From positions 111,762-175,761 of the forward strand of contig NZCT01000024.1 of NCBI GenBank assembly GCA_002688355.1: a stretch of DNA of 64,000 bases. Direction: 5' to 3'. The stretch is from an archaeon. GTDB taxonomy: Archaea > Nanobdellota > Nanobdellia > SCGC-AAA011-G17 > GW2011-AR20. This document shows, piece by piece, positions 13,094-59,123 of this stretch. Below the pieces are notes generated by a model. That model was not told where the DNA came from and ran no database searches. It was given only the letters and a program-made list of their open reading frames with translations. How positions within the stretch are numbered: position 1 is the stretch's first letter; every line of letters begins with the position of its first letter. Both the position numbers and the translations under genes were made by a program.

Positions 13094-13138
13094 GACTAAG
13101 GGATTAGTTTTAAAAGTTTTTTCTATATTCTAATTTGT

Positions 13139-13663
13139 ATGAGAGGATTTACTATATGGATAACTGGACTATCTGGATCAGGAAAAACTACAATTGCAAA
13201 TAAATTATCAGAGTATTTTGCAAAAGAAAAAATCAAACACGAAGTTCTTGATGGTGATTACTTAAGAGATAATGTTGCTCAAGATCTAGGTCACAGTGAA
13301 AAAGAAAGAGAAATGCTTAGGAAAAGAATAGTTTTTGTAAGTAAATTACTGTTAAAACACGATATACCTTGCATACTCCCTGGAGTCTATTCAACAAAAG
13401 CTATTAGATCCTACGCAAGATCAGAATTAAAGAATTTTGTCGAAGTCTATTTAAAATGCCCATACGAAGTATGTGAACAAAGAGATCCTAAAGGACATTA
13501 TAAAAAAGTAAGAGAAGGAACTCTGAAGGATTTTGTAGGATTTGATATGCCATATGAAGAACCAGAAAATCCAGAAGTAGTTCTAGAAACAGATAAGCTA
13601 AATCCAGAAGAATGTGTTAATAAAATAATAGAAAAAGTAAAATCTTTAGAGCATCTAGATTAA
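13139..13663 (+). CDS. cysC: Adenylyl-sulfate (APS) kinase
   Basis: TIWITGLSGSGKTTIANKLSEYF...EVLDGDYLRDNV matches the APS kinase P-loop and LDGDxxR motifs. The size (174 aa) is typical. Confidence 0.7.
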   Translation: MRGFTIWITGLSGSGKTTIANKLSEYFAKEKIKHEVLDGDYLRDNVAQDLGHSEKEREMLRKRIVFVSKLLLKHDIPCILPGVYSTKAIRSYARSELKNFVEVYLKCPYEVCEQRDPKGHYKKVREGTLKDFVGFDMPYEEPENPEVVLETDKLNPEECVNKIIEKVKSLEHLD

Positions 13664-17598: not shown

Positions 17599-17599
17599 A

Positions 17600-18331
17600 A
17601 TGGAATGGAAAACAAAAATATCAAACTTTAATGGTAAAGATGAAACAGTGAAAGGTTTTGATTTAAATGATTTAATCGGAAAAGTTTCTTTTTCTGAAAT
17701 GATATTTATTTTACTAAAAGGAGAAAAACCTAAAGAAAATGAAATAAAATTAATGGATGCAATTTTAGTTGCTACAGCAGAACATGGAATAAATACTCCT
17801 TCAACATTAAGTGCAAGAGTATCAGCATCAGCAACACATAATCTAATCTCTTCCTTAACTGCAGGAATTTCTTCAATAGGCCAATATCATGGAGGTGCAA
17901 TAGAATCATTAGCACAAATACTACAAGAAAATAATTCAAAATCAGCAAAAGATATTGTACAAGAGTTCACAAGTAAAAATCAAAGACTTCCTGGCTTTGG
18001 TCATAAAATATACGAAACAGATCCAAGAGCAGTAAGATTATTTGCAGTAGCAAACGATCTAGGAATTAATAGCACTTACACAAAATTAACAAAAGAACTT
18101 GAACAAGAACTTGAACAAGTAAAAGGTAAAAAATTATGTATAAACATTGACGGTTGTTTAGCAGCATTAATATCTGAATTAAACTTCAATTGGAAAATTG
18201 CAAATATATTTTTTGTTTTACCAAGAATCTTAGGTCTAACAGCACATATTCAAGAAGAAATAGAAGAAGAGAAACCATATAGAAGACTAAACCAAGAGGA
18301 TATTAAGTATGAGAGTAATAGCAACAGTTGA
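17600..18331 (+). CDS. Short citrate-synthase-family protein (citryl-CoA lyase-like)
   Basis: ILVATAEHGINTPSTLSARVSASATHNLISSLTAGISSIGQYHGGAIE and GFGHKIYETDPRAVRL match the citrate synthase catalytic-domain motifs (GPLHGG and GFGHRVYK..DPR). The 243-aa size matches citryl-CoA lyase or the ACL C-terminal domain rather than a full citrate synthase. Confidence 0.6.
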   Translation: MEWKTKISNFNGKDETVKGFDLNDLIGKVSFSEMIFILLKGEKPKENEIKLMDAILVATAEHGINTPSTLSARVSASATHNLISSLTAGISSIGQYHGGAIESLAQILQENNSKSAKDIVQEFTSKNQRLPGFGHKIYETDPRAVRLFAVANDLGINSTYTKLTKELEQELEQVKGKKLCINIDGCLAALISELNFNWKIANIFFVLPRILGLTAHIQEEIEEEKPYRRLNQEDIKYESNSNS

Positions 18332-19043
18332 AGCAAGAATGGCAGCAACAAGACTTCCAGGAAAAGTCTTGGCAGATATAAAAGGTAAACCTGAATTACA
18401 AATATTTCTAGAAAGAGTAACTAAAGCAAAAAAAATTGATGATATAATCGTTGCAACAACAACAAATCCAAAAGATATAGAAATTGTTAATCTATGTAAA
18501 AAATTAAACGTTAAATATTTTAGAGGTTCTGAAGAAGATGTTCTCTCTCGAGTACTAGCAGCAGCTAAATCTTTAAATGCAGATATAATAGTTGAACTAT
18601 GTGCAGATGATCCTTTCATGGATCCAACAGTAATAGATGCAGCAATTGAACATTTCCTAAATAATGACTTTGACTATATGTCTAATTTTCATCCACTAAC
18701 TTTTCCACCAGGAATAGGTGTACAAATTTTTCCATTAAAAGTTTTAGATGAAATAGATAAGTTAACAAATAATCCGTATGATAGAGAAAATGTAACATGG
18801 TACATATATCACAATAAAGACAAATACAAATGCGGTAATTATCCAGCTCCAAAACATTTAGCAGATCCAAAAACAAAACTAGATTTAGATTATCCAGAAG
18901 ATCTTGAATTTATAAGAAAGGTATTTGATAATTTTGATGATATTCATTTCTCATTAAGAGATGTTTTAGATTTACTAGAAAAAAATCCAGAGTTAAAAGA
19001 GATTAATGCTAACAGATATGTTGGTGATGAAAGATACGAATAA
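18309..19043 (+). CDS. CMP-sugar synthetase / acylneuraminate cytidylyltransferase family (NeuA/PseF/LegF/SpsF-like)
   Basis: MRVIATVEARMAATRLPGKVLADIKGKP matches the N-terminal motif of CTP_transf_3 cytidylyltransferases. The start overlaps the upstream gene. Confidence 0.65.
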   Translation: MRVIATVEARMAATRLPGKVLADIKGKPELQIFLERVTKAKKIDDIIVATTTNPKDIEIVNLCKKLNVKYFRGSEEDVLSRVLAAAKSLNADIIVELCADDPFMDPTVIDAAIEHFLNNDFDYMSNFHPLTFPPGIGVQIFPLKVLDEIDKLTNNPYDRENVTWYIYHNKDKYKCGNYPAPKHLADPKTKLDLDYPEDLEFIRKVFDNFDDIHFSLRDVLDLLEKNPELKEINANRYVGDERYE

Positions 19044-22699: not shown

Positions 22700-24217
22700 A
22701 TGGCTCTCGAAACTTTAACCACAACAAATGAACAAGATAGAATAGTTAAATCTAAAGTACCAATAACACCAACTCTAGAAAAATTACTTAACCCAAATCT
22801 TCACAAAAAAGAGCCTATTTTTACAAGTCCTTTAAAAAAACCAAAAGAAGGGGAAAAAGTTTACGATCTTTCACCAGAACAAATTAAAGCAATTCAAGAA
22901 CTAAGAGGAGCAGTAGTTGATCTACATCCAGGAATGGGTGGCGTTGTTCCCAGTAAACTAATACAAATGATTGAAGATGGAATTCCAGTTACTTCATTAG
23001 ATTTTATGATGACAAAAGGATGTAACTTTGAATGTACATGGTGTTATGCTGGTTCAAGTCCATTTGCTACAGAATTTCTTCCTTTTAATAAACTAGAATC
23101 TATAACTCAAGAAGCTGCAGATATTGGAGTCAGTTTATTTATTCTTACTGGTGGTGAGCCTCTTACATATAAAGATCCTGCTTTAGGAAAAGTAAACCAT
23201 AGAGGAGAACATTTTTTCAAAGTTGTTGAGATGATCAAAAATACATACGAACGACAAGGAAAAGAAGCTAAAATTTTAACATTTGATGATGTAGCTTTAA
23301 TCAATGAAAGGATTGCAGAACAATTTGCACATTACAAAATAGGATTATGTACAAAAGGCGACACGTTACATCCTGAATTACAAGATTATAAAGTAAACCA
23401 AGTCGGAGCCTTTAAAAAAATGGAAAAAGGTAATGAAAATTTAATAAAAGTGGGTTATGGGAAAAACCCTGATCTAAGAAATGTAGTTAATTCTGTTTTT
23501 GACCATACAACTTTTGATGGAATGCCAGATCTACATATGTTAGTCAAAGAAAGAGGATTTGATCATTCAATAGTTCCCATTCATTTTTGTGGAAATGCTG
23601 GGGATGAAGATCAAGAAGCAGGGATTCACTCACCCCACGTCAAAGTTCTATATGATCTTCTTTCTAAAGTTGATGAAAAATATTTTGATGAACACTGGGA
23701 ACCTTGGTCAGCATTTACATATAATAAAACCTGTAATAGAAATTTATCAGGCCTTCATATAAGAGCAAATGGTGATGTAACTTCATGTTCAGAATCTCCT
23801 GGAAGAGATGAAACAGACAGGTATACATTTGGCAATATATTTACAGATGAAAATTTCTCCTTAGAAGAATTAGCTTTTAGTAATCGTCTTGCAAACTATA
23901 GAACAGAATTCGCAGAAGGATCTGGAACATATGTATGTGCACCAGATATTTGTGATTTAAATGCTAACGATCTATGCCGAGGTGGATGTGCAGTAAGATC
24001 AGCATATTCAGGTATTAATTATGAAACAGGTTTAATTGAAGAAGGAACAGATGTTCACAATTACAGCACACATAGAGAAGATCCTTTATGCCCAGCATGG
24101 ACAAAACTTGCATTAACACAAGGCATTCTAAAAGAAGGTTTACTTTCAGCTATTCATGAAAGATTGCTTGAAAAAAGTGAAAAATTAGATATTAAAGATT
24201 TTCCTAATCCTTACTGA
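22700..24217 (+). CDS. Radical SAM protein with C-terminal SPASM/twitch-like Cys-rich domain
   Basis: MMTKGCNFECTWCYAG (CxxxCxxC), then GGEPL. The C-terminal region has seven Cys (TSCSESPG...VCAPDICDLNANDLCRGGCAVRS). Confidence 0.7.
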   Translation: MALETLTTTNEQDRIVKSKVPITPTLEKLLNPNLHKKEPIFTSPLKKPKEGEKVYDLSPEQIKAIQELRGAVVDLHPGMGGVVPSKLIQMIEDGIPVTSLDFMMTKGCNFECTWCYAGSSPFATEFLPFNKLESITQEAADIGVSLFILTGGEPLTYKDPALGKVNHRGEHFFKVVEMIKNTYERQGKEAKILTFDDVALINERIAEQFAHYKIGLCTKGDTLHPELQDYKVNQVGAFKKMEKGNENLIKVGYGKNPDLRNVVNSVFDHTTFDGMPDLHMLVKERGFDHSIVPIHFCGNAGDEDQEAGIHSPHVKVLYDLLSKVDEKYFDEHWEPWSAFTYNKTCNRNLSGLHIRANGDVTSCSESPGRDETDRYTFGNIFTDENFSLEELAFSNRLANYRTEFAEGSGTYVCAPDICDLNANDLCRGGCAVRSAYSGINYETGLIEEGTDVHNYSTHREDPLCPAWTKLALTQGILKEGLLSAIHERLLEKSEKLDIKDFPNPY

Positions 24218-26340
24218 GCAAAAGTAGATGTATGAAAAACATGATCTTCCATTTTAGTTTCATATTTCTCTTCAGAAGATTCAACTTGATAAAATAAATC
24301 GCTTATTCTCATATATTCACTCATTTTCCTTAAAGTAAAATTCAAATTAACATTCTTAAATTGATTAATATTACTGTTCAAAGCTTCAACTTGATCATTA
24401 GGTAAATAAAATTTATAATTAATCTTTCCAGCATATTCGTGTAAATTTTTATGATAAGAATCTCGTTTCCATTTTAGCACATCAAAATCAAATTCATTAT
24501 GCTTTTCTATTTCAATTTTAAATTCCTTTTCAATATCTAAACCACTAAAATTAACTCTTAACATGCTTTCAAATTTAATAATATTATCCACAGCAGTTTC
24601 ATAATCTAAAGAAGGACTTTTCTTAGAAATTAATTCTTTAGCTATCTTTCCTAAGTAAATATCAAATTCATTTGGACAATCAGTTATAGTCTTAAAAGTA
24701 TATTGGAAATTTAACTTGCCAAATCCGCCATTCTTTAACTTTTCAAATTCTTCCTCTTTACTATAATGTTCTATTAATTCTTCTTTTGTATCAAACCATT
24801 CTCCCCTAGAGTCGTTATCAAACTCTTTTAATAATTTTTGAACTTCCTTAGGAGCGTTTTCAATATTTTCCATTACAGCAATTAAAAAATCCATAGGATT
24901 AATATCATAAGATTGAATATATTTTAACAAACCCCTATAGTATTTATAATTCCAAGTAAATTGAACTAACCATTGTAATTTCCTAAAGAAAAACAATTCT
25001 TCTTCTGACATATGTTTAGTCGACTTAACCATTTCTTCATATTCAAAAGATTTATACCCACCGTAAGTACCAAAACAAGTATCTATTAATCTAAACTTAG
25101 TCTTAATACCATTTCTTTCCCTATACTCAGGAAGAGACATCTCAGCTCCATTTAACAACCTACAATGATAAACAATTATCTGTCCAGCATCCATATCCAT
25201 TAACTCTCTTAACGCGTTTAAATGACTCTCCTTAGTCTCAAAAGGCATTCCTAGCACCATTTCAGCATCTGAATCAATACCATTATCATGAAAAAAAGTT
25301 AGTAATTCCTTATATGCATCTTGACTAATATTATCTCTTCTAATTTCCTTTAAGGTTTCTAAATTCATAGATTGTAATGACGCATCAACACTTGCTAGCT
25401 CCCCCAACATAGTTGCAATTTTCTTTATCCCATCACTTTTATTCTTAGCCCAAAATGTTGTAACTTTCCTCGGGTAACTGTGTTTATCACTTAATTCCCT
25501 CATTATCTTAGAAAATTCATAATCCCTCTCACTAAAGATTCCAAAATTAGAATCAGAAATACACAATATGTTAGTATTCTTTGTTTCTTCTACTTTTTTA
25601 GCAATATAATAAAACTCTTCTTTTATTCTATCAAATGGAAACATAGCCATCTTCTGATAATCTAAATCTCCCCATACGCAAAAAGTACAAGGATATGGAC
25701 ATCCTCTATTTGTTTCTAAATTAGGAATTAAATTATCCTCAAAAAATTCATCCATTACTCCAGTTAAATACGGAGAAGGTATAACACTAAGATCTTTAAT
25801 TACAGGAGTTTCTTCTCCTCTAATAACTTCATCTTTTTCTTTATCATAATATGCAGTATCTTTTATTACACTTTTTTTCATAAGATTAATGTCTTTATTA
25901 CACTCAAAATATTTCTCTAAAAGATTAACAAATCCAGGTTCTCCTTTATGAATTACATAAAAATCTAAATTATTTTGTTTTTGTAAATAATCTTTTATTA
26001 AATCTGGTCTTATGTGTATATTCGGTCCACCCATTACAGTCATTATTTCAGGATGTTTACTTTTTACATATTTTAACAAATTAATATTTAAATTCTCATT
26101 CCAAGCATAATTACTCAATCCAAGAATATCAGGAGGATTTTTCTCAATCTCTTCTAATAATTTATCTGGGTATTTAAATAATTTAACTGTTAGTTTATCG
26201 CCATAAATTTTATTCAGATATGCTTTAATATATCCAATATTAATTGGAAACATAAAAGGACCTTTACCAACATAATTATGTACAAGATCAGCAAAATAAA
26301 TTACAGTATTTTCTTTTTTAGATTGATTATTCATATTCAA
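24211..26340 (-). CDS. B12-binding domain / radical SAM protein (class B), 709 aa with a long C-terminal extension
   Basis: N-terminal B12-binding-like region (ILGLSNYAWN...TVMGGPNIHI), radical SAM motif TNRGCPYPCTFCVWG, and ~250 aa of additional C-terminal sequence. Confidence 0.7.
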   Translation of the reverse strand: MNMNNQSKKENTVIYFADLVHNYVGKGPFMFPINIGYIKAYLNKIYGDKLTVKLFKYPDKLLEEIEKNPPDILGLSNYAWNENLNINLLKYVKSKHPEIMTVMGGPNIHIRPDLIKDYLQKQNNLDFYVIHKGEPGFVNLLEKYFECNKDINLMKKSVIKDTAYYDKEKDEVIRGEETPVIKDLSVIPSPYLTGVMDEFFEDNLIPNLETNRGCPYPCTFCVWGDLDYQKMAMFPFDRIKEEFYYIAKKVEETKNTNILCISDSNFGIFSERDYEFSKIMRELSDKHSYPRKVTTFWAKNKSDGIKKIATMLGELASVDASLQSMNLETLKEIRRDNISQDAYKELLTFFHDNGIDSDAEMVLGMPFETKESHLNALRELMDMDAGQIIVYHCRLLNGAEMSLPEYRERNGIKTKFRLIDTCFGTYGGYKSFEYEEMVKSTKHMSEEELFFFRKLQWLVQFTWNYKYYRGLLKYIQSYDINPMDFLIAVMENIENAPKEVQKLLKEFDNDSRGEWFDTKEELIEHYSKEEEFEKLKNGGFGKLNFQYTFKTITDCPNEFDIYLGKIAKELISKKSPSLDYETAVDNIIKFESMLRVNFSGLDIEKEFKIEIEKHNEFDFDVLKWKRDSYHKNLHEYAGKINYKFYLPNDQVEALNSNINQFKNVNLNFTLRKMSEYMRISDLFYQVESSEEKYETKMEDHVFHTSTFAQ

Positions 26341-26358
26341 AAGAAATTAAAACAGTAT

Positions 26359-27405
26359 TTAAACCTTATCCCAAGTTATTCCTTCATCTTCTTTTATATC
26401 TCTCTTAGCTTCTCTTCCTACTATAACATCTAAATATCTAGGATGTAATCCTTCTAAAGATCTTTTCCTCCCAACCATATAATCTTCTATTTTAGTTCCC
26501 ATGGGAATATCAATATTTGCTACAATTCTCCTTCTTCCAGATTGCATAGCATAAATCTCTTCTCCAGTTATTTTCCTAACCTCTGATCCAAGAGATAATC
26601 TAACTTCCTTAATACCATCTGTCATTTCCTTTAACTCAATAGGATCTACAGAAATAGGATGATCAGGTGCACCTTTAATATTCTTATCAATTGTAAAATG
26701 TTTTTCAATTAACTTAGCACCCAAAACAGAAGCTGCAATCGGAATATGAATTCCTAAAGTATGATCAGAAAGTCCAACAGGTTGTTCAGGAAAAACTTTT
26801 TGTAAAGTTTGCATAAATTTAACATTAGCCTGATCTGCTGGAGTAGGATATATAACCATACAATGCAATATAATAACATCGTTATTTCCTTCATTCTTAA
26901 TAGCATTAACAGCTTCTTCAACTTCTCCAATATTACCCATTCCAACAGAAAGTATAATTGGTTTATTTTTCTTAGCAATATATCTCAAAAAAGGAATATT
27001 TGTTAAATCAGTGGAAGCAATTTTATACGCAGGAACCTCTAACTCTTCTAAAAAATCTACACTTTCTTCATCAAAAGGAGTAGATAAAAAAACAATATTT
27101 TTTTCTTTACAATAACTTACTAATTCTTTCCACTCATCTTTGCTTAAATCGTCCTGAGTTTCATATAAACTACTTTGCGTAGTTCCTTCAGCATTCTTTT
27201 CCCAAAATCTAGGAACTGTTTTAGTAACTAATTTACTTGAAGTAAATGTTTGAAATTTAATTGCGTCAGCACCACCTTCAGCAGCTTTTTCTATTAATTG
27301 CTTACCTCTCTCAAGAATACAATCATGATTGCATCCTGCTTCGGCAATTACATAAGTAGGATTATCTCCTCCAATAGATTTTTCCCCTATTTTTATTTCC
27401 CTCAT
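26359..27405 (-). CDS. N-acetylneuraminate/pseudaminate/legionaminate synthase family (NeuB-like) with C-terminal SAF domain
   Basis: MREIKIGEKSIGGDNPTYVIAEAGCNHD (NeuB N-terminal signature), TIM-barrel core, and C-terminal antifreeze-like SAF segment ANIDIPMGTKIEDYM. Confidence 0.8.
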   Translation of the reverse strand: MREIKIGEKSIGGDNPTYVIAEAGCNHDCILERGKQLIEKAAEGGADAIKFQTFTSSKLVTKTVPRFWEKNAEGTTQSSLYETQDDLSKDEWKELVSYCKEKNIVFLSTPFDEESVDFLEELEVPAYKIASTDLTNIPFLRYIAKKNKPIILSVGMGNIGEVEEAVNAIKNEGNNDVIILHCMVIYPTPADQANVKFMQTLQKVFPEQPVGLSDHTLGIHIPIAASVLGAKLIEKHFTIDKNIKGAPDHPISVDPIELKEMTDGIKEVRLSLGSEVRKITGEEIYAMQSGRRRIVANIDIPMGTKIEDYMVGRKRSLEGLHPRYLDVIVGREAKRDIKEDEGITWDKV

Positions 27406-27437
27406 AGAAAAAATATCAAAGAAATAAATATTTAAAG

Positions 27438-28421
27438 CTATTCATTAAAATTACGCTTAACTATATCTACAACTCTATCTAGTCCTTTACCATCAACTAA
27501 TTCTTGTCCCTTTTTATTCATTTTTTCTCGTAAATTATAATCACTATTTAATTTATTTACTTCATTTCTCAACTCTTCTTCTAAGATTTTAGTTCCCAAT
27601 CCTAAATAAACACTTGTTCCAAATTCAACAAATAATTTGTTTCTATTATCCTCTAATTCATTCTGCGCTAAAACTAATATAGGTAATCCAGTTGCAGCAC
27701 ATTCAAAACTTGTATATCCCCCCGAAACAATACCCACGTCTGCGTTTAACATTAATTTAGATAAATCACTTAACCCTTCATGTAGATTAACATTCTCATA
27801 ATCAGAGTTTATCTTTTCTAGTTCATTTTTATATTTAAAATTAGGAACCATAACAATATCTAATTCTAAATTAGAATCCTTCAAAGCATTAACAGTCTTT
27901 AATGTTAAGCTATTCAAATCTGAACCTCCAAAACAAACAAAAATTCTTTTATTCTCTTTATTCAAAATTCTTTTAGGTAGATTTTTATAAGAATCACTCA
28001 ATAAAGCATATTTAGGCCCATAGTAATATTCTTTTCTAGAGCCAGGATATAAAGAATTAATAACAACATTAGCAATGTTTCTAGTGTCAGTTTCTTGAGA
28101 ATGCTCCATATTTATAATAAAAATATTATTCTCTTTTAACAATTCCATATACGCCTTATTAGCATATAATAAATCATTAAAAACAACATTAGGGTTATAT
28201 TCCTTAATCAATTCAATTTGGCTTTTAATATCATCAAAATCAACTTCTTTAACATTATATCCTCTATCTTTAACAACATTCATACCTAACTTTGATTCTG
28301 AAGACATAACAAATAAAACTTCAATTTCGTCTTTGATTTTGTCAGCAATTCTCAAAGGGGTAAAAGTATGGCCCATTCCAACTTTATTATTCCCTTCTAC
28401 TCTAAAAACTATTCTTTTCAT
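27438..28421 (-). CDS. PseG-like UDP-sugar hydrolase (GT-B-like, pseudaminic acid pathway)
   Basis: MKRIVFRVEGNNKVGMGHTFTPLRIADKI matches the PseG N-terminal GxGHxxR motif. The size is 327 aa. Confidence 0.55.
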   Translation of the reverse strand: MKRIVFRVEGNNKVGMGHTFTPLRIADKIKDEIEVLFVMSSESKLGMNVVKDRGYNVKEVDFDDIKSQIELIKEYNPNVVFNDLLYANKAYMELLKENNIFIINMEHSQETDTRNIANVVINSLYPGSRKEYYYGPKYALLSDSYKNLPKRILNKENKRIFVCFGGSDLNSLTLKTVNALKDSNLELDIVMVPNFKYKNELEKINSDYENVNLHEGLSDLSKLMLNADVGIVSGGYTSFECAATGLPILVLAQNELEDNRNKLFVEFGTSVYLGLGTKILEEELRNEVNKLNSDYNLREKMNKKGQELVDGKGLDRVVDIVKRNFNE

Positions 28422-28455
28422 AATAACACTAGAATAAATATTTTTATAAAACTAA

Positions 28456-29403
28456 TCAAACTGTTATTTCTTTAGTTTTTTTAACCCATTCAACAGTTTC
28501 TTTTAATCCAAAATTTAAGTCATATAATTGTGTATATCCTAATTCATCATTAGCTTTACTTATATCTAAATAATTATGTTTTAAATCTCCAGTAAAAGGC
28601 CCAGAATATTCTGGTTTAACATCTTTATCTAAGAAGTTATTTATAATAAAAACTAATTCATTTAAACTTGTAGGAATACCACTTCCAATATTAATTATTT
28701 CTCCGTCAAAAGCGTCATTATTCAAAGCTTGAACATTAGCATCAACCACATTTTTTACATAAACAAAATCTCTTGTCTTAATTCCCTCACCCCAAATAAC
28801 AGGATTTTCATTATTCAAAATTTTATCAATAAATTTAGGAACAGCTGCAGCATAATGCGTCTTTAAATCTTGTCTAGGTCCAAAAACATTACTTAATCTT
28901 AATATCACAGTTCTCAAACCGTAAGTTTCATGAAATAATTTACAATAATATTCTCCAAGTAATTTTGTAACAGCATAAGTGGATTTTGGCATAGGAACAA
29001 AATTCTCTTTTAAAGGTAAAACCGGATTTTCTCCATAAACAACAGAAGAACCTGCAAATAAAAATCCCTTAATATTATTTCTTCTAGCTGCTTCTAAAGC
29101 ATTATACGTTCCGTTAATATTAACATTATGATATTCAATAGGATTCTTTATAGATTCTAAAATGTACTTCAACGCCGCGTAGTGTAAAACATAATCAAAA
29201 TCCTTAAATTCCTTTTCTAAAAATTCTAAATCTGTAATATCACCTTCAACAAATTCAAATTTATCTTTAACATTCTCTAAATTATTTAAATCTCCATTAC
29301 TCAAATTATCTATAACTTTAACTTCATGACCATTAGTTATCAATTCTTCAACTACATGACTTCCAATAAATCCTGCTCCCCCTGTAACTATTACTTTTGC
29401 CAT
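28456..29403 (-). CDS. NAD-dependent sugar epimerase/dehydratase (UDP-glucose 4-epimerase-like)
   Basis: MAKVIVTGGAGFIGSHVVEEL and YAVTK (YxxxK). Confidence 0.75.
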   Translation of the reverse strand: MAKVIVTGGAGFIGSHVVEELITNGHEVKVIDNLSNGDLNNLENVKDKFEFVEGDITDLEFLEKEFKDFDYVLHYAALKYILESIKNPIEYHNVNINGTYNALEAARRNNIKGFLFAGSSVVYGENPVLPLKENFVPMPKSTYAVTKLLGEYYCKLFHETYGLRTVILRLSNVFGPRQDLKTHYAAAVPKFIDKILNNENPVIWGEGIKTRDFVYVKNVVDANVQALNNDAFDGEIINIGSGIPTSLNELVFIINNFLDKDVKPEYSGPFTGDLKHNYLDISKANDELGYTQLYDLNFGLKETVEWVKKTKEITV

Positions 29404-30663
29404 TTATTTGTAAGTTAACCCTCCAACTTTTACTTCATCTTTAAATTTTTTCAATAATTCTCTTAACTGATCTTCATTAAGGTTACTATGATCAATATTA
29501 ACATAATACTCCCCGCCTTTACCAACTTGAAAATATTTACTCCAATCAGAGTTTTCTGGTTTCATAATTTGTATACCATATTTTTCAGGATCTTCCCACA
29601 AAGGAGTACTTGGATAAGGTGTTAAAATATAAGCATCAGCATATTCCAAATTTAAACTTCTAGCAAAATTAATTGTATCTATAGCCGTCTCCCAAGTTTC
29701 TCCAGGCAAACCAATAATAAAAAATCCTTTAACTTTAATACCTGCTTTATGACACATTTCAACACCTTTTCTTTGTATATCCACTGTCATATACTTCTCC
29801 ATTTTTTTTAATACTTCATCATTTCCACTTTCCAATCCTAAACTTACAATATCGCAACCAGCATTTCTTATACTATAACATAGTTCTTGTGTCAATAAAT
29901 TAGCTCTCGTAGTACATCTCCAAGTGATATCTTTTTTAGGGAAATTTTCTGTAATCAGATTACATAGTTTTAAAACCCTATCAAATTTAAATGTGAAAAT
30001 ATCATCTCCAAAATAAAATCCCCTTATATCAAATTTATCATATAACAATCTCATCTCTTTAATAATATTCTCTGGGCTTCTTGCTCTCCATTTTTTAATT
30101 TTAGCAGATCCACAATAAACACAACTAAAGACACATCCTCTTGAGGTAACCATAACAACAGCCTTCTTACCATTTAAATCCATATCATATTTTCCCATGT
30201 TAAGATTATCATAATCTGGGAAGGGCAGTGCATCTAAATCTTCAATAGGTTTAGAAATAATAAGTTTAGTTTCATCACCTCCCAAAATTTTTTTAATAGC
30301 TTCTTCTCCATCGCCAACAACTAAATGATCAAAAGTTTCGTTACTAGTTTTTTCAGTAGGCATATCTGTAATATGATTACCTCCTGCAATTAATTTTATA
30401 TTTGGATACAATTCTCTTATTTTTTTAGCTAGTTTTATACAATCAAAATAATTTGGTGTTGAAACACTAAAACAAACATAATCATAATTATTCTTTAAAT
30501 TTTCAAATAAATATTCTTCATTATCATGATTTAAATCAATTAACTTAGAATTATAACCTAATTTTTTACAATAAGAATCCAATAAAGCTAATCCTAATGG
30601 CAATCTATCTCCTTTTTTATCTAAAAACTTATCTTCAGGATTAACAAATAAAATTGATTTCAT
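29404..30663 (-). CDS. B12-binding domain / radical SAM protein (class B), immediately downstream of pepM
   Basis: N-terminal B12-like domain ([11 protein letters not shown]) and [14 protein letters not shown] (CxxxCxxC). Its stop abuts the next ORF and its start overlaps the pepM fusion gene by 4 bp. Confidence 0.75.
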
Positions 30664-31979
30664 TTTTCTTTTATCATCCCATTCCCATCAGGGATTAAAT
30701 TAATTACTTGTTTTATTGGCATACACAAATCTTCAACTTCATGTGCCCTTTCATTTCTTAAAATAGATTCTGAAACTTTAACCATTGCTGGATACGCTGA
30801 CCTAAGTAAATGATTTGCATAGATTACCATATTAATTCCGTTATCAGCGAGTTCTTTTTCTGTTATATGTGAATATGTTGAAGGCACAACAACCAATGGA
30901 ACTTTATTTTCAAATTCTTTATACTTTTGACAAAATTCTTTAATTTCATCAAAGCTCTTTTCCTTACTATGTATCATTATAGCATCAGCTCCAGCTTCAA
31001 TATATGCCTTAGCTCTCCTTAACGCATCATCCATACCTTTCTTTAGAATCAGACTTTCAATTCTTGCTATAATCATAAAATCTTCTGTTACTTGTGCTTG
31101 TTTACCAAATTTTATTTTATTTGAAAAATCTTCTATTGTATCTTGAGTCTGCTCTACATCAGTTCCATATAAAGAATTTTTCTTTGAGCCAATTTTATCT
31201 TCTATTATAACAGCAGAAATTCCTAATCTCTCCAAAGATTTAACTGTAAAAATAAAATGTTCTGCTAATCCTCCACTATCACCATCTACAACTATTGGTT
31301 TTGTAGTAACTTCCAAAATCTGTTCAATAGTATTTATCCTTGATGTAACGTCAACAGTTGCAGTGTCTGGTTTTCCTTTTGATGTTGAATCAGTTAAACT
31401 GCTTTCCCATATTCCATCAAATTCTCTTAGCTCTCCATTATCTAAAGTAATATTAGTTTTTTCAGCTATTAAACCAGTTAAACCATTATGAGCTTCTAAA
31501 ATTCTTACAATTGGTTTTGCAGCCAATAATCTTCTTAATTTGTTTTTTCTAAGTTCAGGAGTAGTTCCCATTTCCATCATATTTTGTATTAAATCTGTTG
31601 TAGAAACATCTCTTGTGTATTCAGGTTCGATTAATTTTCCACCCCATTCTTTCATTGCTTCAACAATATCATCTCTTTTACCTTTTTGAATTCCAGTCCT
31701 CCAATCCGTACCGTGAACCATGAAATCTGCTTTTAATTTTCTAACATTAGGAACATAATCCCATGTTTCTTGAGGAATAACTTCCTTAACACCTTTTAAA
31801 TTTTCTACAACAACTTTTCTTTGTTCAAAAGTTAAAAAAGGAAGCCTCTTATAATTCGCAATAGCTTTATCTGTAAGTAAACCGACAGTTACATCTCCTA
31901 ATTTTCTCGCTTCTTTAATTATATTAAGATGACCATGATGAACTGAATCACCACTCATTGGAACATATACAATTGTCAT
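30660..31979 (-). CDS. Cytidylyltransferase-phosphoenolpyruvate phosphomutase fusion (Fom1-like CyTase-PepM)
   Basis: N-terminal [21 protein letters not shown] (HxGH nucleotidyltransferase motif, GCT/TagD-like). From ~residue 135: [27 protein letters not shown] and [16 protein letters not shown], which are PEP mutase/isocitrate-lyase superfamily signatures including the EDK motif. Confidence 0.75.
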
Positions 31980-31993
31980 TTTATTCCTCCTTG

Positions 31994-33352
31994 TTAATCA
32001 AACCACTTTTTTGTTTCATTTGCAACTCTCTCTCCACTAGGAAGATATGATAATTCTTTTTGTGTAGAAAGATTTATTGCTCCAGATATACCTAAAGTTG
32101 CAATTCTTCCATTTTCTTCTCCATTATTTGAAAAAGCATGTCTAATAAATGGTTGAATATACATTGAATCTCCTTTACGTAAAATATCATTAAAAGTTTC
32201 TCCATTATGAATCCAACTAAAATCTAAATCAGAATCTCCATAATTATAAACATAAGTATGTAATGAATTATAAAATCCATTTTCAAGATTTTTTTCTTTA
32301 GAAAGAACTTCTATCTCAAAACCTTTCATAAAAGGCATTTTAGAACTTCTAGCTAAAGGATGTAATCTATAATTTTTATTCTCTGCATTAGGATAAAAAT
32401 ATCCTTCTTCTTCATCTTTACGTTTTACTACAACAACTTCTTCATTTGGTTTATAGTCAGGAATCATTAAATCACTAATTTCAATATTTAACACATTAGC
32501 AATTTTCTGTAAATCCTCAAAAGACTTATCTTGATTTTCATCTAAAATTCTATCATCTATTGTTCCATCTAAATCTCTTAAACTTTCTAAAGAAATTCTT
32601 TCATTATCCATATGTTGTTTGATTAATTGACTAACTGCTTTGTTATGATTTCTATAATCTAATGTAAATCCTTCAATAGCTCTTTCACCTAACGCATAAA
32701 ATTCTTTTTGTGCTCTACTTATATCCCCTCCAAATGTAACAGCAATAATAAGAGCTTCGTCTTCTTTACTTCTATTAGTAAAACTATGTGGCCAAAAAGG
32801 TGTTATATAATTAGAATCACCAGTATTCATCTCTTCACAATATCTTTTCCCATTCACTTCATAATAAAAATTAACAGGGCCAATAAAAAAAGTCATTTGA
32901 TGCATAAAATGTCCATTATTATAAGCTACATCAAGATTATTTGGATCACTATTCTCAACATATCTTAATTCTTTAATCCATTCTGGTTTAAAACCACTTA
33001 GCTTTGACATTGCTGTATCTCTATAATCATAATAATCTGTTCTTTCTCCAGTTTTATCTTTTCTATCAAATATTCTACTTGTTTCTTTAGATTCTTCTTC
33101 TCTCATTATTCTTACACCATTTTTACAATCATCTTCTATAAGGTGCAAATCAGAAACATCAATAGGATAACTTAAGCCAATCTTATTTATCAATTCATAT
33201 GTTTCCTCCTTTTTACAATCCCCAGATAATATTGAATTTAGTTTTCCAGCATCCATTCCAACCTCTGTAGCACAAGCTTCTGGAGTTCTCTTTAAATCAT
33301 TTAATTCACTTAATATTCTTGAACCAACTAATTTTAAAAAATCGTCTGTCAT
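31994..33352 (-). CDS. HEPD/MPnS/HppE-family non-heme-iron bicupin oxygenase; candidate methylphosphonate synthase-like enzyme
   Basis: 452 aa with an N-terminal HTH-like segment and cupin core [22 protein letters not shown]...ITPFWPHSF. By direct count the motif residues are H148, Q152, F162, I183 and H189, a 2-His-1-Gln pattern. The gene lies inside the pepM-ppd-adh operon. Confidence 0.6.
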
Positions 33353-34128
33353 TTTCCCCTCCCGTTTGCCTTATCAAAATCTTGAACAGTATCAAACTCT
33401 TTCCAATTTCCCTGAATTATTGTACAGTGTATTTCTTCATTCTCATCTATTAATTCTTGGAAAATATCAGTTATGTAAGCTTTTTGCCATTCCTTTGTAT
33501 TTTGGAATGAATCTAGTTTCTGTAACTTTAAATTTAGTCTATCAAAATGTTTTAAAAAGATTTCTATGCCTTTATAGGTAAATTTCCAAAGTCCAATAAA
33601 CTCTCCTTGTCTATTTTTAGGTGTTTCATGAGTAAAAATATGTTTTCCAATCTTCATAATTTTTTGATTATCATCAAAAATAACATTTTCAGCTTCATCA
33701 ACTGGATGATCTGTTCTTCCTTCATAATAATCTTGCCAATCAATATCAACAACAGCGCTAATATGTTCTTTAGATATTTTTAATTTATTAACAACACTTG
33801 AACCATACCAAATATCAGAATAGCTTATTATAACATCTTCTTTTTCATTTTTAGCTTCTTCTAATTTTTCCCTTGCACAAATTAAAGAATGTAAAATGTT
33901 AGTGTTCCCAAAATCTATATTTTCAAAATATGTTAATTCTGGAAAAATAATCTTTTCTTTTTTATATCCTCTTATTACAGATATATCATTTACCCCATTT
34001 TCTCGTAAAACATCTAAAATATTCTGAAGAATTGGTTTACCTCTAATTTTTAACATGCATTTAGGCGTATCCTCCGTTAAAGGTCTTAACCTTGTAGAAG
34101 GTCCTGCTGCAATAATTATTGCCTTCAT
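33349..34128 (-). CDS. LicC-like nucleotidyltransferase (CTP:phospho-alcohol/phosphonate cytidylyltransferase family)
   Basis: MKAIIIAAGPSTRLRPLTEDTPKCMLKIRGKPIL closely follows the LicC/sugar-NTase N-terminal motif (GxGTRL). Confidence 0.65.
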   Translation of the reverse strand: MKAIIIAAGPSTRLRPLTEDTPKCMLKIRGKPILQNILDVLRENGVNDISVIRGYKKEKIIFPELTYFENIDFGNTNILHSLICAREKLEEAKNEKEDVIISYSDIWYGSSVVNKLKISKEHISAVVDIDWQDYYEGRTDHPVDEAENVIFDDNQKIMKIGKHIFTHETPKNRQGEFIGLWKFTYKGIEIFLKHFDRLNLKLQKLDSFQNTKEWQKAYITDIFQELIDENEEIHCTIIQGNWKEFDTVQDFDKANGRGK

Positions 34129-34171
34129 TCAAAAACAAAAATAAGCAAAATTTATAAGTCTGACTAAAGAA

Positions 34172-35317
34172 TTACATTTCTATCGTACTTAGAATTACAT
34201 TAACATCTTCTTCTGTTGGAACTTCAATACTATTAAACATTCTTTCTGGCGTGAAACCTTCTTTTGTTATTATAGATTTATCGTCAATTTTTGCATCTTT
34301 TAAAGTTAAAGGAGCACCTATTTGGGATTTTAAAGATTGGATACTATCATATAAAATTTCGAAATGATTTTTATTAATCGAAGGGAATATATATTCAACA
34401 AGACCATTTAATTTTTTTCTCACTAAATCAGATCTATCATAGTTAAATTTCAAAATTTCTGGTAAAGTCAAAGCGCAAGCAAACCCATGTTCTAAATCAA
34501 AATGAGCTGTCATTGGATAAGAAAGTGAATGTGCAGGACCTGTAGTTGTCCTACTTATAGCTATACCAGACCATAAACTCGCATACATCATTCTTTCTCT
34601 AAATTTAACTTCGTTAGGGTATTTATAGGTTTTTTCTAAATAACCAAATACTTCAGCTATATTAGTTGGAATAAAATTATCAGTTAAAGAGTTAGAATTT
34701 TTATTAAAATAAGCTTCAAATAATTGAGTCAACGCATCTAATCCAGTTGCTGCAGTGATTTTCCCAGGTAAAGATAAAGTTAATTCAGAATCTAAAATAG
34801 CATAATCAGGACTAACTATATATTTTTCAGGGCCTCCAAAAGATTGTTTCCTTTTATCTTTATAAAAAACAGAAAAAGGTGTAACTTCTGAGCCAGTACC
34901 AGCAGTAGTAGGGATAGCTACAAAAGGGACTTGTTTCTCTTTTATTTTACCTTGAGTAAAGTCTCCATTAAAACCCAAAATTGAAGTATCATTTCTATAA
35001 ACACAAGAAATAATTTTTCCAATATCCATCACAGCACCACCACCTGCACCTATGACCATATCAGAATCATATTCTATCAATTTTTCTAAAGCGTCTTGAA
35101 CTCCTTCAAGTGTTGGAGAACCTTCAACATTATTATAAACAAAAACATCTCTACCATCTAACAAATTTTTCGTTACATCTAAAAATCCTGATTTTTCAAA
35201 AGAATTCTTTCCAGTAACAAGAAATATTCTTTTTGCATCATGTTCTTGAATTATTTCTTTTAATTGATAAAGTCCATTTTCATTGCATATTTTTGTTGGA
35301 ATATTAAAATATTTCAC
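34172..35317 (-). CDS. Iron-containing (group III) alcohol dehydrogenase; candidate phosphonoacetaldehyde reductase
   Basis: GAGGGAVMDIGK glycine-rich Fe-ADH motif, with His-containing metal-site region HSLSYPMTAHFDLEHG. Its position between ppd and pepM matches the FomC/PhpC arrangement. Confidence 0.7.
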   Translation of the reverse strand: MKYFNIPTKICNENGLYQLKEIIQEHDAKRIFLVTGKNSFEKSGFLDVTKNLLDGRDVFVYNNVEGSPTLEGVQDALEKLIEYDSDMVIGAGGGAVMDIGKIISCVYRNDTSILGFNGDFTQGKIKEKQVPFVAIPTTAGTGSEVTPFSVFYKDKRKQSFGGPEKYIVSPDYAILDSELTLSLPGKITAATGLDALTQLFEAYFNKNSNSLTDNFIPTNIAEVFGYLEKTYKYPNEVKFRERMMYASLWSGIAISRTTTGPAHSLSYPMTAHFDLEHGFACALTLPEILKFNYDRSDLVRKKLNGLVEYIFPSINKNHFEILYDSIQSLKSQIGAPLTLKDAKIDDKSIITKEGFTPERMFNSIEVPTEEDVNVILSTIEM

Positions 35318-36378
35318 TTTATTGCTTCCATAAATCTCTTAGTTATTTCTTCAGGTAATAATTCAATTCTCTCAATATCTTCTAGATTGCCTTTCTTAAC
35401 ATTAACTAATAAAAAATTAGGGCCATCCAATTCCAATAATTCTTTAATAACCTTTTCTAAATTCTCCTTATCATTAACTTTTCTAGAGTTTGTATATCCA
35501 CAAGCTAAAGCAATATCTTTAATCTCAGTTGTATTTGATGTAGTTCTTTGTCCTCCTGTAGAAGACCAAGATTCATTATCTAAACAAATATGTAAAAAAT
35601 TCTTAGGTTTAATATTTCCAATTGTAGATAAAACTCCAAGATGCATTAAAGCAGCACCATCACCATCTAAAACAATTATTTTCTCTTTAACTTCTTTAGC
35701 AATACCCAATCCAATAGATGAAGCATGACCCATTGAACCAATAACATAAAAATTTTTAGGAGCATCATCCGCTTTATTTAACTCTCTTGAGATCATTCCA
35801 GTAGTAGAAATTCTAATCATATCTTTTGTATTATTTGCTATTAATTCTACAGCGTCATATCTAGACATTTCGTAATTTGTTTTATGTTGAGATTCATATT
35901 TTTCTATAAATTCAGGATTAACAATTAAAGCTACTGTACTTGTATTTTCCAATTCATCATTAGCCCATTTAATATCATCAAAAGATTCTAAAACTTTAGA
36001 TTTAATATTAGCTAATTCTAAAAACTCTTTAGTATTCTCCCCCATATACCAATGTTCAGGAGCATCTTTTTTATTAGCAGGATTACCTCTCCATCCAACT
36101 AATAATAAACTTTTAGTGTTGTACAAATTATTCAAAGAAGTTTGAGGGTTAATTAAATTCCCAATACCAGCATTTTGCATCATTACAACAGGTTTTTTCC
36201 CAGTTAAATAAGAACCAGCACCTCTTGAAAAAGCTAAACCTTCATTAACATCAGGAATATATTCATTTTTCAAAGTATCTAAATAATTAAAAAATCCACC
36301 AAATGAAGAATCAGCAACACCCATAAAAGGACCAAAATTATATTTTTTCAATTCTTGATACAATTCTTCAGGTTTCAT
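35314..36378 (-). CDS. Phosphonopyruvate decarboxylase-like thiamine-diphosphate enzyme
   Basis: TPP-binding motif GSMGHASSIGLGIAKEVKEKIIVLDGDGAALMHLG (GDG...N). The 354-aa size and gene context with pepM support the call. Confidence 0.7.
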   Translation of the reverse strand: MKPEELYQELKKYNFGPFMGVADSSFGGFFNYLDTLKNEYIPDVNEGLAFSRGAGSYLTGKKPVVMMQNAGIGNLINPQTSLNNLYNTKSLLLVGWRGNPANKKDAPEHWYMGENTKEFLELANIKSKVLESFDDIKWANDELENTSTVALIVNPEFIEKYESQHKTNYEMSRYDAVELIANNTKDMIRISTTGMISRELNKADDAPKNFYVIGSMGHASSIGLGIAKEVKEKIIVLDGDGAALMHLGVLSTIGNIKPKNFLHICLDNESWSSTGGQRTTSNTTEIKDIALACGYTNSRKVNDKENLEKVIKELLELDGPNFLLVNVKKGNLEDIERIELLPEEITKRFMEAIK

Positions 36379-36390: not shown

Positions 36391-37149
36391 ATGGAAATGT
36401 TTAAAAGTTTATTCCATAAATGTCTACAAATGGTAGAGTCAATTAAAAAACTAAGAGAAATTTGCCAAAAACCTGTAACTTTTAATTCATTTTATCAAAG
36501 AATAATGGCAAGAAGATTTTCCATTTACTTAGTATGGTTATTAATTCCTTTCAAAGTTTCTGGCAATCTAGCATCTTTCTTAATGTTATTAACTGGAATA
36601 ACTGCATCAATATTTTTTACAGTCGGAAGTTACTGGTTTTACGTTATCGGAACTTTACTTTTACAGTTATGGTTTGTCCTAGATCACGCAGATGGTGAAT
36701 TAGCACGTTACTGGAAAAAAGCATCTACAAAAGGTATTTTCATCGATAAACTAACTCACCATATTGTCCATCCATTAATTTTCTTAGGATTAAGTATTGG
36801 ATTATACAAACAATTTAACAATCCTATAATGTTAATCTTAGGTGCCTTTACAGCATATTTTCTATTACTTCAAGATCTAATAAACATAGATAAAGTTGAA
36901 GCCATTAGAATAGCTTCTAAAATTAAAACTAAAAATAACAAAGAAGAAAAATTAACTCTAAAAAATTCTTTATTTACAAAAGTTACTTCTGTAGTTTACA
37001 AAATACCAGGTTTAATGAACATAGTAACAATTTCAGCTATTTTAAACATATTACACTTTACATTTTTCTTTTATGCAGTAACATTTCCAATAATGATATT
37101 ACTAAAATTAATTTACAATTTAAAAATTCCAGAGGAACAATTTAAATGA
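36391..37149 (+). CDS. CDP-alcohol phosphatidyltransferase-family membrane protein
   Basis: FVLDHADGELARYWKKASTKGIFIDKLTHH approximates D-G-x2-A-R...G-x3-D. It has several TM helices and is divergently oriented from ppd with a 12-bp gap. Confidence 0.5.
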   Translation: MEMFKSLFHKCLQMVESIKKLREICQKPVTFNSFYQRIMARRFSIYLVWLLIPFKVSGNLASFLMLLTGITASIFFTVGSYWFYVIGTLLLQLWFVLDHADGELARYWKKASTKGIFIDKLTHHIVHPLIFLGLSIGLYKQFNNPIMLILGAFTAYFLLLQDLINIDKVEAIRIASKIKTKNNKEEKLTLKNSLFTKVTSVVYKIPGLMNIVTISAILNILHFTFFFYAVTFPIMILLKLIYNLKIPEEQFK

Positions 37150-37658
37150 AAACCTTAGATTTAGGTTGTGGACATCATAAAGTAAAAGGAGCATTTGGTG
37201 TAGATTTTATTAAATTACCAGGAGTTGATTTTGTCTGGGATTTGAACAAAACATTACCAAAAGAATTTCATAATGAATACGATGTAGTTTACTCAAATGG
37301 TGTAATTGATCATCTTGGAAATCCTCTAAATTTTTTAGAAGGATGTAAAAAATACCTAAAGAAAGATGGGAAACTAATAACTATTGTCGATAACGGAGAT
37401 TATTGGAGATATCACTTACATCTAGGAAATTATCACGCGGACTTGTGGGAAAAAGATTTTCCAGATCATCCTGAAACACATCATAAAATGTTATTTCAAA
37501 TGAAACACATAGAAAAAATATTAAAATTATTAGATTTTAAAGTAACAAATAAAAAATACATAAGACTAACAGGAACTTGGAAAGATTATCATATAGATTA
37601 TTTATTGCCAAAATTTATTGGCTGTAATTTCATGAAAATAGAAGCTATAAAAAATTAA
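37146..37658 (+). CDS. Putative SAM-dependent methyltransferase
   Basis: MKTLDLGCGHHKVKGAFGVD (motif I, LDLGCG). Confidence 0.45.
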   Translation: MKTLDLGCGHHKVKGAFGVDFIKLPGVDFVWDLNKTLPKEFHNEYDVVYSNGVIDHLGNPLNFLEGCKKYLKKDGKLITIVDNGDYWRYHLHLGNYHADLWEKDFPDHPETHHKMLFQMKHIEKILKLLDFKVTNKKYIRLTGTWKDYHIDYLLPKFIGCNFMKIEAIKN

Positions 37659-57673: not shown

Positions 57674-57679
57674 TTTTTC

Positions 57680-59048: not shown

Positions 59049-59123
59049 AATTTAAGAATATTAATTTTATTTATATAATTATTGAATTTCCTACATTATA
59101 CTATAACACACAATTACATTACA

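Follow-up and report, generated by a model that had tools for sequence, protein, structure and literature searches.

The synthesis of methylphosphonate (MPn) in Archaea is known from the ammonia-oxidising thaumarchaeon Nitrosopumilus maritimus, whose ppm-ppd-pdh-mpnS cluster specifies a four-enzyme route from phosphoenolpyruvate (PEP) to MPn, includes a methylphosphonate synthase (MPnS) with the active-site signature H/Q/F/I/H and is flanked by glycan and nucleotidyltransferase genes. Archaeal MPnS clusters with such neighbours have been known since N. maritimus, a comparable context is found in marine bacteria (PMC9381506, PMC8942020), and the surroundings of the N. maritimus MPnS likewise suggest the formation of (methyl)phosphonate esters (PMC9381506). 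The published archaeal carriers of MPnS are Thaumarchaeota and a "Crenarchaeota archaeon" (PMC9381506). In the present work, we have analysed a stretch of archaeal DNA of 64,000 nucleotides (referred to below as the window) and describe in it a five-gene array (positions 30660–36378, minus strand) that is, in our assessment, quite probably an operon for the biosynthesis and activation of MPn in an uncultured DPANN archaeon, wired into a surface-glycan island. The array shares with the N. maritimus cluster the four-enzyme route, the MPnS signature, the archaeal background and the kinds of flanking genes; however, its host belongs to DPANN rather than to the ammonia-oxidising Thaumarchaeota, and its oxygenase, 41% identical to that of N. 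maritimus, groups with bacterial and DPANN sequences in a weakly supported tree. A preliminary description of this DNA had called an archaeal phosphonoglycan locus of such composition notable, which in view of the clusters known since N. maritimus was overstated, the new element being the DPANN host.

Several bacterial systems resemble the array in part. Like the bifunctional Fom1 of Streptomyces wedmorensis, one of its proteins joins an N-terminal HxGH cytidylyltransferase to a C-terminal PEP mutase, but Fom3, Fom4/HppE and FomD of the fosfomycin pathway are not found in the window and the adjacent radical S-adenosylmethionine (SAM) enzyme belongs to a sugar module. With the Pnt pathway (PntC/LicC-type; Rice et al., 2019, PMC6697681) it shares a LicC-like nucleotidyltransferase and the logic of a phosphonate that is made, activated with cytidine monophosphate (CMP) and moved to the cell surface, CMP activation being the rule in phosphonate tailoring (PMC6697681); however, the characterised PntCs act on 2-aminoethylphosphonate, whereas the window has no transaminase for this compound and the substrate would be MPn and/or 2-hydroxyethylphosphonate (2-HEP). 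The marine bacterial MPnS loci (viz. those of Pelagibacterales, SAR86, Rhodospirillales and Flavobacteriales) have in common with it the MPnS marker residues, an adjacent gene for an iron-dependent alcohol dehydrogenase (Fe-ADH), and either a LicC-like gene directly upstream of that for MPnS or a cytidylyltransferase-PEP mutase fusion (56–62% identical in the loci L007, L008 and L012 of our comparison set), but the window has both kinds of nucleotidyltransferase and, in addition, a DPANN-specific phosphotransferase/methyltransferase pair. Published MPnS neighbourhoods contain LicD-type, sulfatase and kinase genes, whereas in the window the conserved transferase candidate is a variant CDP-alcohol phosphotransferase. 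In the collection searched, we found nothing relevant linking DPANN, Woesearchaeota or Pacearchaeota with MPnS, pepM or phosphonate, and nothing on CMP-MPn or an MPn cytidylyltransferase. The pathway is well known, and what is new is its occurrence in DPANN, a group not previously linked to MPn synthesis in the literature searched.

The phosphonate array and its MPnS-type oxygenase

The array consists of five minus-strand open reading frames (ORFs) lying exactly at the coordinates first reported, in the order ppd, Fe-ADH gene, LicC-like gene, MPnS-type gene and pepM. The first two ORFs overlap by 4 bp, as do the third and fourth, while 43 bp separate the second from the third and 14 bp the fourth from the fifth. 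Its earlier characterisation as a complete operon of five co-directional genes needs to be widened on both sides: the coordinates and all five assignments stand, but the co-directional array runs past 30660 with five further genes to 24211 (gaps of at most 34 bp), and the conserved unit also takes in a phosphotransferase gene and a methyltransferase gene beyond 36378. The G+C content of the phosphonate region (0.28–0.30) equals that of the whole window, indicating that it is not a compositional island.

The assignment to MPn synthesis is carried by a bicupin non-haem Fe oxygenase of 452 amino acids (aa) (31994–33352, minus strand), which is deposited in GenBank as MAG47671.1, "hypothetical protein CL617_03620 [archaeon]", on the 224-kb scaffold TARA_SAMEA2620106_METAG-scaffold_9 of an archaeal metagenome-assembled genome from Tara Oceans. 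Residues 3–452 of this protein align with residues 10–451 of the N. maritimus MPnS structure (NmMPnS; 6b9s) with 315.8 bits (E 6e-93), which is 91 bits above its score of 224.5 bits against the 2-hydroxyethylphosphonate dioxygenase (HEPD) of S. albus (SaHEPD; 6b9r); HppE scores 20 bits. The marker residues listed for MPnS are H148, Q152, F162, I/V184 and H190, and those for HEPD are A/Q152, I/Y162 and E/G184 (Lockwood et al., 2022, PMC9381506 Suppl. Table S2), F162 and I/V184 being the Gln-adjacent residues that separate the two enzymes (PMC9381506). All five MPnS markers (H148, Q152, F162, I184 and H190) are present in the window cupin, including the iron-binding triad H148, Q152 and H190, and the four residues H, Q, F and H are kept in all 120 of its best homologues, with Ile (117 sequences), Val (one) or Gly (two) at position 184. 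In a neighbour-joining tree, the window protein falls inside the group rooted by NmMPnS and away from SaHEPD. The DPANN proteins cluster together in this tree and sit among bacterial sequences, with NmMPnS basal; because the bootstrap values are only 10–52%, we make no firm claim regarding horizontal transfer of MPnS.

If the oxygenase were instead an HEPD, producing hydroxymethylphosphonate and formate, or had some other outcome, the product of the array would not be MPn. HEPD and MPnS are homologous members of the bicupin fold family with a common substrate, SaHEPD has the same His-Gln-His triad as the window cupin, and the latter shares only 41% identity with the single MPnS for which a structure is available. 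However, its identity to SaHEPD is lower still (31%), SaHEPD has Tyr162 and Gly184 where the window protein has Phe and Ile as in MPnS, instead of the Tyr/Ile and Gly/Glu listed for HEPD, and both the difference in score and the position in the tree place it with MPnS. We consider an HEPD very unlikely on these grounds. The window cupin agrees with MPnS in every sequence criterion in use for this enzyme, and MPnS activity is predicted for it.

The enzymes acting before MPnS

The last gene of the array (30660–31979, minus strand) encodes a Fom1-type fusion of 439 aa, in which a cytidylyltransferase (CyTase) domain (aa 1–136) precedes a PEP mutase (PepM) domain (aa 146–431). The PepM domain scores 408.3 bits (E 1e-122) against the PEP mutase equivalog model TIGR02320 (cut-off 319.55), carries the Ppm-specific motif EDKX5NS at aa 260, and over residues 144–431 matches the PEP mutase structures 5unc and 1m1b with 150–156 bits. 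The models for methylisocitrate lyase (106 bits) and phosphonopyruvate hydrolase (158 bits) both remain under their own cut-offs, and with the EDKX5NS motif present the protein is not an isocitrate- or methylisocitrate-lyase paralogue. The N-terminal domain matches PF01467 (60 bits, E 4e-16), has the HxGH motif as HHGH at aa 14, and over residues 3–136 gives 170.9 bits (134 residues) against the structure of the CyTase domain of Fom1 (5x3d).

The first gene of the array, ppd (35314–36378, minus strand), encodes a phosphonopyruvate decarboxylase of 354 aa, dependent on thiamine pyrophosphate (TPP), which exceeds the cut-off of the corresponding equivalog model TIGR03297 (331.5 vs. 312.5 bits, E 6e-99), contains the TPP-binding motif LDGDGA, has the alpha and beta subunits of the putative Ppd 9iz3 as its top PDB matches, and is 65–67% identical to the syntenic genes of four related loci (L001, L006, L021 and L024). 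The protein is not a sulfopyruvate decarboxylase, as the model for the beta subunit of that enzyme gives 174.8 bits and remains under its cut-off of 221.5. The adjoining gene (34172–35317, minus strand; GTG start) encodes a protein of 381 aa that matches PF00465 (E 1e-38) and PF25137 and, in comparison with 3zdr, keeps the metal ligands Asp (GLDAL), His (PAHS) and His (LEHG), the fourth canonical His being replaced by Gln; the ligand markers given for PhpC are D199, H268 and H282 (PMC9381506 Suppl. Table S2). This protein can be filed only as a group III Fe-ADH, and its predicted role as phosphonoacetaldehyde reductase rests on conserved synteny: all of the MPnS loci examined that are not truncated have an Fe-ADH gene beside that for Ppd or that for MPnS.

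Two cytidylyltransferases and the related MPnS loci

Between the genes for the Fe-ADH and the oxygenase lies that of a LicC-like nucleotidyltransferase of 259 aa, a predicted phosphonate cytidylyltransferase (33349–34128, minus strand), which matches PF00483 (44.5 bits, E 2e-11) and PF12804 (39.6 bits) and has the S. pneumoniae LicC (1jyk, 60.5 bits) at the top of its PDB matches. The window thus carries cytidylyltransferases of both kinds, viz. the Fom1-type domain and the LicC-like protein. With this protein, the five gene assignments of the preliminary description have all held: a PepM with an EDK motif fused to an HxGH cytidylyltransferase as in Fom1, a Ppd, a group III Fe-ADH (by its family matches and its Asp and two His ligands), a LicC-like cytidylyltransferase, and a cupin of the HEPD/MPnS family, for which the choice left open is settled as MPnS-type (315.8 vs. 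224.5 bits; five markers). At the level of sequence, the profile, structure and motif matches establish what the five enzymes are and that the oxygenase has an active-site signature of the MPnS type.

We have compared the array with 18 other MPnS loci, two of which (L003 and L006) are truncated contigs. The ppd-adh-mpnS-pepM gene set recurs across these loci, and in 16 of the 18 (the exceptions being the two truncated contigs) a nucleotidyltransferase adjoins, or is fused with, MPnS or PepM. This takes the form of a Fom1-type CyTase-PepM fusion in L001, L007, L008, L012, L021 and L022, of two free-standing CyTase-like genes in L002, and of LicC-like genes beside or near MPnS in L004, L005, L009–L011, L013 and L014; the LicC-like gene is directly upstream of MPnS in L004, L009–L011 and L013 and lies beside a truncated MPnS fragment in L014. 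Fusions of LicC-like homologues with MPnS are found in L023 and the proteins P0022 and P0025, and a fusion with PepM in L024. Two nucleotidyltransferases per locus, as in the window, occur in L002, L004, L014 and L022. The DPANN loci L001, L006 and L021 have no LicC-like gene between those for the Fe-ADH and MPnS, and because these are the closest DPANN loci, the LicC-like gene is an addition in this genome.

The two cytidylyltransferases also bear upon which phosphonate is activated. It could be envisaged that 2-HEP is the main attached group, with the Fom1-type domain making CMP-HEP for transfer or for polymerisation by a TagF-like enzyme and with MPnS diverting only part of the pool. The fused CyTase has a characterised homologue whose substrate is 2-HEP (PMC6697681), an exopolysaccharide bearing HEP is known (PMC8942020), and CMP-HEP would resemble CDP-glycerol in offering a free hydroxyl group for extension by a TagF-like enzyme. 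However, MPnS is kept and tightly linked in all of the DPANN loci, in L024 it has not been lost but has given way to a different gene of the MPnS type, and the LicC-like nucleotidyltransferases are linked or fused specifically to MPnS. A principal role for 2-HEP is in our view rather unlikely, and MPn is the product that we favour.

The locus L024 comes from the same related metagenome-assembled genome (MAG) as L017. Its ppd, Fe-ADH, phosphotransferase and methyltransferase genes are 45–67% identical to those of the window, but positions 2225–5160 encode an MPnS-type cupin of 405 aa that is only 35% identical (with H/Q/F/I/H intact) and a PepM with a LicC-type fusion, which suggests an exchange of the rear half of the cassette. 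A homologue of the TagF-like protein of the window (55% identical) lies inside the phosphonate cluster of L024, between the genes for the nucleotidyltransferase-PepM fusion and those for the Fe-ADH and Ppd, which supports a connection of the TagF-like enzyme with phosphonate; a GNAT homologue (62%) is also inside this cluster. Another of the DPANN loci, L021, is collinear with the window except for a Y1/IS200-type transposase gene (positions 5806–6240 of L021) between a GT2 gene and the methyltransferase gene.

Among genome-resolved sequences, the locus has its nearest relatives in MAGs of Nanoarchaeota (L001) and Woesearchaeota (L006) and in a genome of Pacearchaeota (L002), to which a Tara Pacearchaeota protein (P0053) can be added. 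Flanking genes in L001 and L006 are syntenic and 57–78% identical to those of the window, and the B12-domain radical SAM protein encoded beside pepM is 82% identical to a protein labelled Candidatus Woesearchaeota. The window also encodes an archaeal S-layer protein of 758 aa (54272–56548, minus strand; PF05124 S_layer_C 47.1 bits, cut-off 23.9; TIGR01564 29.5 bits, cut-off 25), a possible glycan carrier and further evidence of archaeal origin. The source of the window is a DPANN archaeon of the Woesearchaeota/Pacearchaeota type. The features that are specific for this lineage are a His-variant phosphotransferase paired with a methyltransferase, the presence of both nucleotidyltransferase types, and a phosphonate array coupled to a NeuB module.

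A conserved phosphotransferase and methyltransferase gene pair

Divergent from ppd lies the gene for a membrane protein of the CDP-alcohol phosphotransferase family, a candidate CMP-phosphonate transferase (36430–37149, plus strand; 239 aa). Its ORF opens at 36391, and homologues starting with MVESIKKL show that the true start is Met14 at 36430. The protein matches PF01066 (31.4 bits, cut-off 22), has AF2299 as its best PDB match, and carries the family signature as DHADGELARYWKKASTKGIFIDKLTH (DHADGELARx8Gx3Dx3H). It overlaps by 4 bp the gene for a small class-I SAM methyltransferase of 170 aa (37146–37658, plus strand; PF13489, E 1.5e-10), for which PDB and NCBIfam gave no informative match. 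The methyltransferase is constant in position, with identities of 78–81% to its counterparts in L001 and L021 and of 58% to that in L024. The phosphotransferase family is small (26 matches in a word-seeded search of a collection of 5.8 billion proteins), its orthologues adjoin ppd in the window, L001, L006, L021 and L024, and only orthologues at least 58% identical are phosphonate-linked. The conserved unit extends to this gene pair (36430–37658), which lies beside ppd in five DPANN loci.

The 51-bp spacer between the two divergent transcription units contains a TATA-box-like element, TTTAAAAG (36400–36407), whose centre lies some 26 nt away from either start codon (36378 and 36430) and which may act as an archaeal promoter element common to both units, from which leaderless transcripts would arise. 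A promoter and terminator scan gave counts at or below the shuffled expectation, its model being bacterial and uninformative for an AT-rich archaeon.

The family to which this transferase belongs raises the possibility that the end product is a phosphonolipid, the phosphonyl group being transferred from CMP to an archaeol-type lipid alcohol. The transferase encoded beside ppd is an integral membrane protein of a lipid head-group family, as indicated by AF2299 and by a match of 37.9 bits to the archaetidylinositol-phosphate synthase model; however, the latter is far under its cut-off of 180, and the signature is altered. The surrounding genes are, moreover, all related to glycans (glycosyltransferases, deacetylase and NeuB, with a flippase in L021 and a TagF-like gene in the L024 cluster), and the MPn of N. 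maritimus has been described as an adduct or ester consistent with polysaccharide (PMC8942020; PMC9381506). A lipid product is unlikely in view of these observations, and a glycan is the acceptor that we prefer.

The adjoining nonulosonic-acid module

The five genes that continue the minus-strand array (24211–30663) form, by their profile family matches, a nonulosonic-acid module. It begins with a radical SAM protein with a B12-binding domain (29404–30663), whose gene overlaps pepM by 4 bp, followed by an epimerase/dehydratase of the short-chain dehydrogenase/reductase (SDR) family (28456–29403), a PseG-like protein (27438–28421), NeuB (26359–27405) and a KedN5-like B12 radical SAM protein of 709 aa (24211–26340), all on the minus strand. 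The first two genes abut with no gap; given this, the SDR fusions and the likeness to AprD4 described below, their products may constitute a radical dehydratase/reductase pair making a deoxy sugar. A radical SAM/SPASM protein of 505 aa is encoded on the opposite strand (22700–24217, plus) and converges on the end of the ten-gene array; the Pacearchaeota locus L002 has a homologue of 47% identity (11386–12747) between its genes for MPnS and PepM, and this protein may be linked to phosphonate chemistry.

The position of the first radical SAM gene beside that of a Fom1-type fusion could be read as a sign of a fosfomycin-like small-molecule pathway, in which the CyTase-PepM protein makes CMP-HEP and the B12 radical SAM enzyme methylates it like Fom3, leading to a secreted antibiotic. 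Besides the similarity of the N-terminal domain to the Fom1 CyTase noted above, this would be in keeping with a partial match (133.7 bits) of the radical SAM protein to the PhpK P-methyltransferase family. However, the same five-gene block, with the first gene 82–84% identical, is present in the Woesearchaeota contigs L016–L019 with no phosphonate genes beside it; this radical SAM family also exists fused to an SDR sugar enzyme (P0223 and P0232), the solved structure closest to it is that of the diol dehydratase AprD4, and among the other MPnS loci only L021 shows a match to it, at 28%. No HppE- or FomD-like gene was found in the window, where the sole cupin is MPnS-type (the HppE match of 20 bits lies within it), and a CyTase-PepM fusion is no specific mark of fosfomycin synthesis, 23.6% of all Ppm proteins being of this kind (PMC6697681). 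A role of the radical SAM enzyme as Fom3 or P-methyltransferase is ruled out by the phosphonate-free block, the SDR fusions, the AprD4 likeness and the absence from MPnS loci, and a fosfomycin-like pathway is highly improbable; both this pathway and an HEPD are disfavoured by direct tests. Because the block recurs without phosphonate genes, occurs with an SDR fusion and has AprD4 as a relative, the five downstream genes are best assigned to a separate sugar module.

In L021, the phosphonate cassette is likewise upstream of, and co-directional with, a radical-SAM/NeuB module, so that the physical link of the phosphonate and NeuB modules recurs. NeuB or CMP-nonulosonate synthetase genes near MPnS are also seen in unrelated loci (viz. 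the Flavobacteriales locus L011, L021 and the fusion locus L023), and NeuB/CMP-nonulosonate genes are present in L025.

Other genes of the surface-glycan island

The archaeal origin and the surface-glycan context that had been proposed for this DNA both hold (DPANN relatives, S-layer protein, glycan genes), and the surrounding glycosyltransferases, TagF-like protein and CDP-alcohol-phosphotransferase-like proteins named earlier were all found. The many glycosyltransferases are accompanied by two genes of the CDP-OH_P_transf family (36391–37149 and 11461–12129) and, about 15 kb from the phosphonate operon, by a TagF-like protein of the CDP-glycerol glycerophosphotransferase family (13715–15541, plus strand; 608 aa; PF04464 57.7 bits, cut-off 22.1), the second candidate phosphonyl transferase. 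The second CDP-alcohol phosphotransferase (222 aa) is grouped with an LPG_synthase_TM protein and an APS kinase (11461–13663), and L025 has the same trio plus an ATP sulfurylase, which hints at sulfated or phospho-alcohol decoration of a glycan. Three consecutive genes (15543–18331, plus strand) resemble an ATP-citrate-lyase/citryl-CoA system, encoding a protein with ATP-grasp_2 and Citrate_bind domains (395 aa), one with CoA_binding and Ligase_CoA domains (305 aa) and one with the citrate-synthase C-terminal domain only (243 aa); they lie, oddly, directly upstream of the gene for a CMP-sugar (KdsB/NeuA-like) cytidylyltransferase (18309–19043) and might acylate a sugar. A HpnJ/BchE-like B12-binding radical SAM protein (479 aa) is encoded at 6853–8292 (minus strand), and the island of this small-genome archaeon, presumably unable to make cobalamin, contains four radical SAM genes in all. 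Downstream of the S-layer gene are five or six smaller ORFs (56775–60126, minus strand) and an ORF of 1222 aa (60203–63871, minus strand), for which Pfam and NCBIfam gave no match save one weak MntA-like nucleotidyltransferase. Rfam and tRNA scans of the window detected one tRNA-Ser and nothing else.

Proposed pathway and its significance

In the pathway that we propose, the PEP mutase domain would convert PEP to phosphonopyruvate, which Ppd would irreversibly decarboxylate to phosphonoacetaldehyde, and the Fe-ADH would reduce the latter to 2-HEP. The MPnS-type oxygenase, with Fe(II) and O2, would then cleave the C1–C2 bond of 2-HEP to yield MPn and CO2. One or both of the cytidylyltransferases (the Fom1-type domain and the LicC-like enzyme) would form CMP-MPn and/or CMP-HEP from CTP, and the CDP-alcohol-phosphotransferase variant and/or the TagF-like enzyme would move the phosphonyl group to a glycan hydroxyl with release of CMP, the acceptor glycan probably containing nonulosonic acid and having either the S-layer protein or a lipid as its probable carrier. 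The steps from PEP to MPn are supported by the sequence tests. We infer the activation and transfer steps from the families involved and from the precedent of phosphonate tailoring (PMC6697681), and the substrates of the cytidylyltransferases, the identity of the transferase, the acceptor and the attachment of the phosphonate to a glycan are to be understood in the same manner.

A number of observations weigh against this proposal. The activity of the oxygenase is predicted from marker residues only. With the phosphonate-specific model TIGR03405, the Fe-ADH scores 192.5 bits and the cut-off of 423.7 is not reached. The proposal does not account for the presence of two cytidylyltransferases. 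The full signature of the CDP-alcohol phosphotransferases is DxxDGxxARx8Gx3Dx3D, whereas the fourth Asp is replaced by His (DxxDGxxARx8Gx3Dx3H) in all five of the sequences aligned (the window, L001, L002, L006 and L021). Relatives of the phosphotransferase at 53% and 30% identity belong to glycan clusters whose flanks, as far as retrieved, contain no phosphonate genes, and its donor may therefore not be a phosphonate. Lastly, DPANN archaea are often regarded as anaerobes, while MPnS needs O2, and this need also contrasts with the O2-sensitive radical SAM enzymes encoded in the same gene array.

MPn has been proposed as the compound from which methane arises in oxygenated surface waters, and the organisms known to make it are archaea of the Nitrosopumilus type, SAR11 and a small number of other bacteria. 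The locus described here would add a different archaeal lineage to them, with related loci in Pacearchaeota of the ocean (a Tara Oceans MAG) and of groundwater (a RIFCSP genome); since the oxygenase is deposited as "hypothetical", gene surveys keyed to annotation would miss it. The nucleotidyltransferase-MPnS fusions, the phosphotransferase variant linked to ppd and the TagF-like gene in the L024 cluster are candidates for the steps that follow MPnS. A broader reading, which we put forward tentatively as a possibility, is that DPANN of ocean and groundwater (Woesearchaeales/Pacearchaeales-like) form an unrecognised guild of MPn producers that decorate nonulosonic-acid S-layer glycans, their His-variant phosphotransferase, methyltransferase and TagF-like proteins accepting CMP-phosphonates from the two cytidylyltransferases; if true, it would name the long-missing enzymes that act after MPnS. 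That an archaeon with a reduced genome, probably associated with a host, spends about 7 kb on modifying its surface with phosphonate bears on the protection of the cell surface that has been proposed as a role of these compounds.

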